A stretch of 6,001 nucleotides of DNA from a virus. Its lineage: Duplodnaviria; Heunggongvirae; Uroviricota; Caudoviricetes. The stretch spans positions 1 to 6,001 of the IMG/VR virus record IMGVR_UViG_2585427725_000002; one strand, written 5' to 3'. Numbering within the stretch: the stretch's first letter is position 1; each line of letters opens with the position of its first letter. Of the stretch, positions 1-6,001 are shown piece after piece. The position numbers were made by a program, and so were the translations under genes. The notes under the pieces were generated by a model. That model worked only from the letters and a program-made list of their open reading frames with translations. It was not told the origin of the DNA and did no database searches.

Positions 1-2
1 CC

Positions 3-188
3 CTGCCGATATCTTTCAGCAATACCAATTATTGTGTTGTTGCATCGTACGATAATGCACGGTCAGGTGCGTCAACAATGGTTAGTTTTGCAGCATTACC
101 TGTTTCACCATCGCAATTTTCCCTGATGTCATCTGTGACTGAGCAAGGAATAAATCCTTTTGCTTACTGGATTGCTTTTGGAGATTGA
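3..188 (+). CDS. Alternative tail-fibre C-terminal variable segment, 3' end only (5' part off-window); promoterless in this orientation
   Basis: Frame 3 is open from the window edge to TGA at 186..188 (61 codons, ending ...INPFAYWIAFGD). It sits directly upstream of, and in frame with, the plus-strand tfa gene (TGA TAA then ATG at 192), which is the arrangement expected for the silent fibre/tfa pair of an invertible segment. Not in the ORF track because it lacks a start inside the window. Confidence 0.45.
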   Translation: MPISFSNTNYCVVASYDNARSGASTMVSFAALPVSPSQFSLMSSVTEQGINPFAYWIAFGD

Positions 189-191
189 TAA

Positions 192-611
192 ATGGACAGA
201 TACTTCTATTCACAAAAAGAAAATGGTTTTTTTACCGATTTAAATAAAGCACCTTCAGATGCTGTTGAGATAACCACGGATGAATGGCTATCACTACTGG
301 ATGGTCAGGATAATGGCATGAAAATAGTCAGCAATCAGGAGGGATATCCGGTTTTGACAGAGCAACCACCTTTATCAAAAGAAAACCTTATTGCATTGGC
401 AGAGTTGAAAAAAGGAAAACTTATTAATGAAGCCAACGAGCACATGAACAGCAGGCAATGGCCTGGTAAAGCGGCTATTGGTCGTCTGAAAGGTGAGGAA
501 CTGGCGCAATATAATTTGTGGCTGGATTATCTGGACGCACTGGAACTGGTTGATTCCTCCAGTGCGCCAGATATTGAATGGCCTACGCCTCCGGCAGTTC
601 AGGCCAGATGA
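192..611 (+). CDS. Tail fibre assembly protein (Tfa/gpG/U-like chaperone), alternative copy
   Basis: 139-aa ORF with ATG at 192. The C-terminus (LDYLDALELVDSSSAPDIEWPTPP) carries the conserved Tfa C-terminal motif and parallels the C-terminus of the minus-strand tfa. It is convergent with that gene and overlaps it at 583..611. Confidence 0.8.
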   Translation: MDRYFYSQKENGFFTDLNKAPSDAVEITTDEWLSLLDGQDNGMKIVSNQEGYPVLTEQPPLSKENLIALAELKKGKLINEANEHMNSRQWPGKAAIGRLKGEELAQYNLWLDYLDALELVDSSSAPDIEWPTPPAVQAR

Positions 612-1185
612 CATCCGGCGCGGTGCTGGTATCTGTTGCCGTCACCGCGTCAATGTAATCCAGCACAGCGTTAAGTCGGGTGGTTTCTGCCTGCGTCAGC
701 TTCCGTCCGGCCTGTAGTTTCAGTTGAATCAGACTAATGGAAGCCATTGCTGCATCAATAAGTGACTGGCGCAGTGCTTCTGCCGCGTCTACTGCGGCAT
801 TATGCTGTGCCTCAGTATCTGTCACCCATTTCTCACCATCCCATTTATCGTATGGCGTTAACGGGGCGATAGTGGTTGTATTATCAGGGTAATCACCCGG
901 AGCTGTGATTTCTTTTGATTCTCCTGTTTCGGTGCTAAAGACGATTTCACCGCGATGGTCTGGCACATATTCCCATGAGTTAAAATCTGCAGATCGGCAG
1001 ATTGCATAACCAGTTTTGTATGAGCCAGGAGCATCTAAACAGGAACATGCCGGAATGCCGACACCCACAGCAAGATATTCAGTTGATGTGAAAATATATT
1101 CCCGTGTTTCACCATCATAGTTATAAACCGTAATATTTCCTGCCTGGGTGGCGATAAATTCGTTATTTAATACAGCGTAATCCAT
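583..1185 (-). CDS. Tail fibre assembly protein (Tfa/gpG/U-like chaperone)
   Basis: 200-aa ORF with ATG at 1185..1183. The C-terminus (LDYIDAVTATDTSTAPDVIWPELPEA) is the characteristic Tfa motif. Its start overlaps the fibre stop by 1 nt (TAATG), indicating translational coupling. Confidence 0.85.
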   Translation of the reverse strand: MDYAVLNNEFIATQAGNITVYNYDGETREYIFTSTEYLAVGVGIPACSCLDAPGSYKTGYAICRSADFNSWEYVPDHRGEIVFSTETGESKEITAPGDYPDNTTTIAPLTPYDKWDGEKWVTDTEAQHNAAVDAAEALRQSLIDAAMASISLIQLKLQAGRKLTQAETTRLNAVLDYIDAVTATDTSTAPDVIWPELPEA

Positions 1186-4963: not shown

Positions 4964-4980
4964 TTAGTAGGCTCCAGAAA

Positions 4981-5006
4981 GCAAAAAACCCGCCGAAGCG
5001 GGTTTG
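4981..5006 (-). terminator. Rho-independent terminator (minus-strand reading)
   Basis: The minus-strand transcript reads AAACCCGC-UUCG-GCGGGUUU followed by UUUGC: an 8-bp GC-rich stem with a UUCG tetraloop and a U-tract. It lies between the truncated upstream ORF stop (5023) and the V-gene ribosome-binding site. Confidence 0.6.
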
Positions 5007-5022
5007 ATAACGTTAATTTTAT

Positions 5023-5144
5023 TCATGAAACTCTAGCAGACTTTAGCTGTTCCCAGCGCTCAAAATAGAGTTCAGCAGCCTCGATTGCATCCTGTCCCAT
5101 CTCTTTCGAAACAGTCACATTCGTCAGATCATAGTCAGCTTCAT
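5023..5144 (-). pseudogene. 3' fragment of an unidentified gene interrupted by the IS2 insertion
   Basis: One minus-strand frame stays open from the IS2 junction (5144) to TGA at 5025..5023, about 39 codons ending ...ELYFERWEQLKSARVS. The other two frames stop immediately. The upstream part would lie beyond the IS2. Confidence 0.35.
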
Positions 5145-5185
5145 TGGATTTGCCCCTATATTTCCAGACATCTGTTATCACTTAA
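5145..5185. repeat. IS2 right terminal inverted repeat (IRR, about 41 bp)
   Basis: The terminal sequence matches the remembered IS2 IRR. The exact inner boundary is approximate. Confidence 0.7.
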
Positions 5186-6001
5186 CCCATTACAAGCCCG
5201 CTGCCGCAGATATTCCCGTGGCGAGCGATAACCCAGCGCACTATGCGGATGCCATTCGTTATAATGCTCGAACGCCTCTGCAAGGTTCTTTGCTGCCGTT
5301 AACCCGTCTGGTTTGGGCATGATACTGATGTAGTCACGCTTTATCGTTTTCACGAAGCTCTCTGCTATTCCGTTACTCTCCGGACTCCGCACCGCCGTGT
5401 TCTTCGGTTCAAGTCCCAACATCCGGGCGAACTGGCGTGTTTCATTAGCCCGGTAGCATGAACCATTATCCGTCAGCCACTCCACTGGAGACGACGGAAG
5501 ATCGTTGCCGAAGCGGCGTTCCACCGCTCCCAGCATGACGTCCTGTACTGTTTCACTGTTGAAGCCGCCGGTAGTGACCGCCCAGTGCAGTGCCTCACGA
5601 TCACAGCAGTCCAGCGCGAACGTGACACGCAGTCTCTCTCCGTTATCACAGCAGAACTCGAACCCGTCAGAGCACCATCGCTGATTGCTTTCTTTCACGG
5701 CCACTCTGCCTGTATGTGCCCGTTTCGATGGCGGTACAGCAGGTTTTCGCTCAAGCAACAGCGCATTCTGGCGCATGATCCGGTAAACACGTTTGGCATT
5801 GATCGCAGGCATACCATCAAGTTCTGCCTGTCTGCGAAGCAGCGCCCATACCCGACGATAACCATACGTGGGCAGCTCTCCGATAACATGGTGTATACGG
5901 AGAAGCACATCCGTATCATCAGTGTGACGACTGCGGCGGCCATCCATCCAGTCATCGGTTCGTCTGAGAATGACGTGCAACTGCGCACGCGACACCCGGA
6001 G
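5156..6001 (-). CDS. insD: IS2 transposase OrfB (InsD), N-terminus off-window
   Basis: The translation ([26 protein letters not shown]...WCSDGFEF...[10 protein letters not shown]...[14 protein letters not shown]...RCLEI, stop TAG at 5158..5156) shows the IS3-family DDE motif and matches IS2 InsD as I remember it. The track's leading M at 5995 is a GTG, an in-frame Val; the real start lies upstream, off-window. Confidence 0.9.

Follow-up and report, generated by a model that had tools for sequence, protein, structure and literature searches.

Our analysis of a 6,001-nucleotide stretch of DNA (hereafter, the window) revealed what is very probably a single insertion of IS2, complete or near-complete, into the pentamer TTCAT of a gene encoding a 131-residue HEPN/UPF0332-like protein in a SEN34-like temperate myovirus prophage of Escherichia coli. 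In this event, 5 bp would have been duplicated and all else left unchanged, with the tail module otherwise intact. IS2, its 5-bp target duplication, the splitting of genes by it and its presence in prophages are textbook knowledge, and the event described here is an ordinary IS2 insertion at one more site, with no new kind of feature. Its significance beyond annotation is therefore small, and a mildly interesting by-product is the variable slot that it drew attention to, where HEPN-like two-gene cassettes are found. The coordinates of all features are collected in Table 1.

Table 1. Features of the window and of related contigs (positions refer to the window unless a contig is named).
Feature	Position	Strand	Description and basis
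Alternative fibre C-terminus (3-188, cut by the contig end) and second tail-fibre assembly gene (192-611)	3..611	+	Pin-type invertible segment
Tail-fibre assembly protein, 200 aa	583..1185	-	PF02413
Tail fibre with collar domain, 265 aa	1185..1982	-	PF07484; exact 265-aa product on record
Baseplate wedge protein (DUF2612 / Phage_Wedge1), 226 aa	1982..2662	-	PF11041
Baseplate J-like protein, 399 aa	2659..3858	-	PF04865
Sheath-initiator (gp25-like) baseplate protein, 117 aa	3858..4211	-	precomputed PF10934 Sheath_initiator on identical product
Tail spike (membrane-puncturing, GpV apex motif), 250 aa	4211..4963	-	Pfam N-terminal spike domain (E = 4e-44), Apex; RefSeq annotation
Terminator-like hairpin, AAACCCGC-TTCG-GCGGGTTT plus T-run	4976..5005	-	between accessory-gene stop and spike ribosome-binding site
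3' fragment of the interrupted gene (codons 92-131 plus stop)	5023..5144	-	131-aa HEPN/UPF0332-like accessory protein, phrog_5176
Chimeric 52-aa ORF	5023..5181	-	GTG start at 5181 within the IS2 IRR, fused to the 40-codon remnant
TTCAT target-site duplication copy (ATGAA in gene direction)	5140..5144		same pentamer at the IS2 left end in L022
IS2 right inverted repeat (IRR), 41 bp	5145..5185	-	alignment to the IS2A terminus; plus strand reads TGGATTTGCCCCTATATTTCC...
Right-hand 857 nt of IS2 (nt 1331 down to 475)	5145..6001	-	alignment to IS2A of K-12 MG1655
IS2 orfB (InsD) transposase coding region	5156..6001	-	Pfam HTH_21, rve, rve_3
Variable slot	L001 9424-10579; L003 8777-9936; L025 7043-8951		

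IS2 is a member of the IS3 family, 1,331 bp in length, which moves by a copy-out/paste-in mechanism via a minicircle; its DDE (rve) OrfB is made together with OrfA by -1 frameshifting. With the annotated IS2A of K-12 MG1655 as the reference, the IS2 part of the window aligned without gaps and with a single mismatch (856/857 nt identical, 99.88%), and thousands of E. coli matches to it carry the annotation 'IS3-like element IS2 family transposase'. The stop codon of InsD lies at 5156-5158 and its 3' end is complete, while the start side is cut by the contig end at approximately the annotated insD start. The corresponding open reading frame (5156-5995, minus strand) displayed the HTH_21, rve, and rve_3 domains in a Pfam scan, and its translation agrees with K-12 InsD from residue 20 through to the stop codon. 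IS2 and the phage genes point the same way, with the right inverted repeat of the element, for which a size of 41 bp has been reported (PMC3299598), toward the spike gene. Base 5145 is the final base of this repeat and 5144 the first host base; the T at 5145 is also compatible with the uninterrupted host sequence, and the boundary was fixed by the canonical IS2 end.

The sequence-only reading of the window had already placed the meeting point of the IS2 right end and host DNA at 5144/5145, which the alignment to the canonical IS2A terminus bears out, and had looked to a left end with a 5-bp target duplication. Both were found, not past the window's edge but in a separate public contig. From the uninterrupted sequence and the IS2 left end, we had predicted, ahead of the search, a reciprocal junction of the form ...GGGGGCCAGTCTA + TTCAT + TTCTAGCATCCCGCC (plus strand of the window). 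This 33-nt sequence has an exact and single occurrence in IMG/VR, in the record IMGVR_UViG_2585427779_000001 (L022), where the junction reads ...GCTAGAAATGAA followed directly by TAGACTGGCCCCC and continues for 112 nt of IS2 up to the contig end, all 112 of them identical to K-12 IS2A. Both canonical termini are thus present, the IRR ending ...GGGGCAAATCCA at window position 5145 and the left inverted repeat beginning TAGACTGGCCCCC at position 9033 of L022, and the 5-bp duplication TTCAT/ATGAA is found at both junctions, on two separate contigs (5140-5144 in the window and 9028-9032 in L022). Upstream of this junction, L022 carries the first 93 codons of the split gene, the gene for a 257-aa protein, and intact baseplate-hub, tape-measure, chaperone, tube, and sheath genes. 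From the exact reciprocity of L022 and the window, we infer that both junctions come from one genome.

The same allele was encountered in further samples. The window junction recurs base-for-base in L014 and L015, two metagenome scaffolds from independent assemblies, and the predicted 93-aa N-terminal fragment of the interrupted protein, ending in RDARNE, has an exact counterpart in the protein collection (P0030, four contigs from Logan and ENA). The window junction had no exact match in GTDB representative genomes or IMG/VR, and the reciprocal junction had none in JGI metagenome contigs. Among 5,426 complete E. coli genomes, BLAST returned no record of the spanning junction and no closed genome with the whole insertion. 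This specific IS2 junction, present in several samples, can serve as a lineage marker. The orfA region of the element (IS2 nt 113-474) is covered by neither the window contig nor L022, and the present copy may carry an internal deletion within this interval. The frameshift site, like orfA, is located past the end of the window contig.

Joining L022 to the window in silico, with IS2 and one ATGAA removed, restored the 131-aa open reading frame within a sequence of ~14 kb. This reconstruction is gaplessly colinear with the uninterrupted prophages L004 (over 12,719 bp) and L005 (over 12,541 bp), and to either side of the join 1,225 bp match both prophages at 100% identity. In the event that we propose, IS2 would have targeted the pentamer TTCAT and duplicated it once, and the insertion lies between codons 93 and 94, with the 5' fragment (...RDARNE) stopped by the TAG at the beginning of the IS2 left end. 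The arrangement resembles that of IS2A in K-12, which splits yaiX: in both cases IS2 lies within a gene that is left in two pieces and is flanked by a 5-bp target duplication (ATTAC in K-12, ATGAA/TTCAT here). Over the 857 nt, the present copy shares its right terminus and its InsD reading frame with the yaiX copy, and, over the parts visible in the contigs, the insertion site is the sole difference from IS2A of K-12.

The expectations that a minus-strand frame runs open from the junction to a stop at 5023 and that the gene preceding the spike gene had been split by IS2 were likewise confirmed. The frame is open in the list of open reading frames (TGA at 5025-5023), and the 40-codon remnant corresponds to the 3' end of a 131-aa open reading frame in relatives. 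Its host-derived part (5144-5026) translates to NEADYDLTNVTVSKEMGQDAIEAAELYFERWEQLKSARVS, that is, residues 92-131 of the intact product, with 40/40 residues identical in seven relatives (L001, L004, L005, L006, L008, L011, and L013). An uninterrupted allele, with the 131-aa frame in the same place, was identified in L001, L002, L004, L005, L008, L011, and L013. Chance cannot account for these agreements. The 3' fragment (40 codons, in the window) lacks its own start codon. The chimeric 52-aa frame that arises from its fusion to IS2 matched no family in a Pfam scan and was also called in the metagenome scaffolds L014 and L015; it is most likely non-functional and, as a remnant of the gene joined to IS2 sequence, is best annotated as a pseudogene fragment. 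Since IS2 sits between E93 and A94, in an invariant motif of the family, neither piece of the protein can be functional, and the knock-out of the accessory gene follows directly from the sequence.

The intact 131-aa protein belongs to phrog_5176, a PHROG of no assigned function, and the overlapping upstream gene encodes the 257-aa protein, assigned to phrog_17809. Homologues of the 131-aa protein were found in Citrobacter, Klebsiella, Enterobacter, Rahnella, and further genera; the label HEPN or UPF0332 is attached to them in some sources. In the protein collection (P0029-P0043), the 131-aa and 257-aa proteins share one 90%-identity cluster with a 257-aa representative, which is probably an artefact.

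Profile comparison of the 131-aa family against the PDB revealed nearly full-length matches to 9xbd (5e-8), 9xbc (2.9e-7), and 2hsb (UPF0332 protein AF0298; 2e-5). PF05168 matched 6 of 18 family members with a best E-value of 3.8e-5, and the E. coli 131-aa protein alone gave no Pfam match, being below the reporting thresholds. The AF2 model of P0001, a homologue of 89% identity, is all-helical with a pLDDT of 91.8. A Foldseek search with this model placed HEPN structures at the top (2hsb with a probability of 0.99 and a TM score of 0.58-0.60, 2q00, and the sacsin HEPN domain), as weak hits with E-values that are all at least 0.15. Invariant residues of the family comprise RAYY (30-33), H37, and the stretch R91-N-E-A-D95-Y96. 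Canonical HEPN RNases carry an Rx4-6H motif with the catalytic histidine; in the 131-aa family this motif is absent, with a tyrosine in the expected histidine position, and PDB 9xbd has the same RN..DY form. Taken together, the 131-aa protein resembles the HEPN/UPF0332 proteins (PF05168; PDB 2hsb and 9xbd), including HepT of the MntA-HepT system, in its size, its all-helical predicted fold, and its RAYY ... RN-x-x-DY signature, and we describe it as a divergent protein of the HEPN/UPF0332 type, or 'HEPN-like'. It differs from the HepT/MntA pairs in having tyrosine for histidine and in its neighbour, the 257-aa protein, which is of no known family (no significant match in Pfam, NCBIfam, PADLOC, or the PDB) and is not an MNT nucleotidyltransferase; no MNT partner was identified. 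On these two grounds, the label of a HepT-type toxin was set aside. A literature search on 9xbd/9xbc and on UPF0332 with HEPN returned nothing usable.

The overlapping genes for the 257-aa and 131-aa proteins form a two-gene cassette, with the baseplate-hub genes on one side and the spike gene on the other. The content of this slot changes between otherwise colinear relatives: some have the 257+131-aa pair, others carry a pair of 243+142 aa from the same two PHROGs, and phage vB_EcoM-606R2 has four small, unrelated genes there. The GC content of the cassette is 42-44%, as compared with ~50-52% in the neighbouring tail genes, and a megablast search of 50,697 phage records returned no match to the 257+131-aa cassette. 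The exchange of slot contents, the deviating base composition, and the hairpin that follows the cassette mark it, on sequence features, as accessory or moron-like. The position between hub and spike can thus be viewed as a hot spot for exchangeable cargo in this prophage family, HEPN-like genes included. A bolder proposal is that phrog_5176 and phrog_17809, together with the 142+243-aa allele pair, constitute a HEPN-based two-gene defence or toxin-antitoxin-like module in a hypervariable slot, with the recurrent IS2 allele as a selected knock-out. The pointers toward it are the HEPN-like fold, the variability of the slot, and one weak PADLOC match of the 142-aa protein of the other allele (HEPN_IX, E = 0.009), and we regard this proposal as rather unlikely.

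A terminator-like hairpin, with its fold z-score of only -1.28 and an unexceptional energy, is located 22 nt upstream of the start codon of the spike gene. It is native and not made by IS2, as it is present in the uninterrupted L001, and it is kept after the 142-aa allele in L003 (9958-9983), where the loop has changed from TTCG to an AAGT-containing form. Located mid-way in a presumed single late operon, it confronts late transcription with a terminator-like signal.

The sequence-only reading had further held that the insertion separates the downstream genes from any upstream late promoter. This holds in the physical sense, since IS2 does lie in between; as a statement on transcription it is weakened by the hairpin, which already occupies the same place in the uninterrupted relatives. 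A mostly untranslated, co-oriented insert of 1.3 kb would be expected to lower, by Rho-dependent polarity, the read-through transcription that reaches the spike, baseplate, and fibre genes, and a polar effect on these genes is plausible by analogy. Classical IS2 insertions in gal are polar and rho-dependent, and a literature search on the classical orientation-dependent effects of IS2 yielded nothing usable. As in the gal-operon mutants, IS2 in the prophage is inside a polycistronic unit, upstream of genes that need read-through. Unlike in those mutants, the unit is a phage late operon with a terminator-like hairpin already present and perhaps a terminator-resistant polymerase, and polarity is here what we infer. 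No polarity would be expected if phage late transcription were terminator-resistant, and it may be so because the native hairpin must already be traversed.

IS2 would not be expected to act as a replacement source of promoter activity. No promoter-like -35/-10 pair was detected at or near the junction. The -35 box at the IS2 right end can form hybrid promoters (PMC9330008), while the wild-type right end is reported to show no detectable outward promoter activity (PMC12095673). A hybrid promoter at the IS2 right end was considered and rejected on both counts, the lack of a -35/-10 pair and the lack of reported activity.

Taken by itself, the window has one junction only, and IS-associated rearrangements do occur in this prophage family. 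In L006 (CP163825, 7208-9500), IS2, together with another element of the IS3 family, borders the start of the 131-aa gene beside the cassette, and replication genes replace the upstream tail genes, which amounts to a deletion or rearrangement in that genome. The IS2 end in the window could in principle mark an endpoint of this kind, with the other IS2 end beside unrelated DNA and the upstream tail genes lost or moved. We consider this very unlikely, as the predicted reciprocal junction does exist with the same 5-bp duplication and with intact upstream tail genes, the predicted 93-aa fragment is on record in four contigs, and neither flank departs from the uninterrupted relatives over its 1,225 bp. 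The event is thus a simple insertion rather than a deletion endpoint, because the reading frame is restored upon excision, the flanks are fully identical, and the target is duplicated. The continuity of the joined flanks, on which the earlier interpretation hinged, was borne out in this manner by uninterrupted homologous prophages. That the junction is an assembly artefact, a chimera of prophage reads and a repeated IS2, is exceedingly improbable, even though the contig ends in a multicopy repeat of the sort that is error-prone for short-read assemblers: the identical junction recurs in two independent metagenome assemblies, its reciprocal is found in a further contig, and the breakpoint matches the genuine IS2 terminus to the base, with a proper 5-bp duplication.

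An alternative of a different kind accepts the insertion and holds that it is functionally meaningful, either because inactivation of a costly HEPN-type toxin or defence gene was selected, or because the IS2 -35 box helps to transcribe the spike and baseplate genes. The position within the invariant RNEADY motif and the recurrence of the allele in several samples, which shows that it is stably inherited, are in line with the former, and the hybrid promoters formed via the right-end -35 box (PMC9330008) with the latter. However, selection cannot be deduced from one insertion allele in a single lineage, and the HEPN-like protein, of only presumed toxicity, is without the catalytic histidine. The promoter variant is further opposed by the missing -35/-10 pair near the junction, by the reported inactivity of the wild-type right end (PMC12095673), and by the hairpin between IS2 and the spike gene. 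We therefore find a functional role for the insertion improbable, and retain the reading of an ordinary insertion into an accessory gene.

The genes that flank the insertion provide the context for this reading. The spike gene is the first gene downstream, its start codon 181 nt from the IS2 end, and the baseplate-hub, tape-measure, tube, and sheath genes lie upstream. IS2 had initially been thought to precede a self-contained baseplate operon in a disrupted, probably defective or cryptic element, and neither part of this description could be upheld. The spike and baseplate genes make up the distal portion of a single long tail cluster; all 17 tail genes compared, on both flanks, have open frames with almost no difference from those of intact relatives; the split gene is non-structural; and the close relatives are sequenced phages. 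The prophage should thus not be dismissed as decayed, as the accessory gene alone is affected. The same block order (spike, sheath-initiator, baseplate J, wedge, and tail fibre) is found in the temperate myoviruses SEN34 of Salmonella and vB_EcoM-606R2, -689R2, and -611R5 of Escherichia, and the baseplate block is 97% identical to that of the three Escherichia phages and 78% identical to that of Salmonella phage SEN34. In vB_EcoM-606R2, the sole one of these phages inspected for this feature, other small genes lie upstream of the spike gene and there is no IS2.

Some details of the tail genes deserve mention. The sheath-initiator assignment of the 117-aa protein was not reproduced in our own Pfam scan, which returned no match as against the precomputed PF10934, and this looks like a threshold or version discrepancy. 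The real start of the tail fibre gene is at 1982 and not at 2000, the 271-aa frame in the mechanical list starting six codons too early. The fibre end and assembly gene on the plus strand face the expressed pair on the minus strand, and in relatives pinE adjoins this invertible segment. Another prophage of this family (L013 11156-12384, strain 2824) has its baseplate J gene interrupted by an IS3-family element.

Finally, the insertion accounts for the position at which the draft contig stops. Reverse-complemented, the window equals the whole of draft contig JOSS01000105.1 (6001 bp; assembly GCA_000713825.1), and its right edge falls within IS2, at nt 475 of the element, with no sequence past 6001. 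Short-read assemblies typically stop at multicopy repeats, and the contig ends within IS2 because IS2 is such a repeat in a short-read draft; the assembly would have been broken within the repeated element, which places the window edge there. The last base of the window, IS2 nt 475, coincides exactly with the annotated insD start in K-12, which is most likely a coincidence. At the opposite side (window 1-1185), the left end of the contig lies within the Pin/Gin-type invertible tail-fibre segment, and the break there is probably due to the inverted repeats of this segment.
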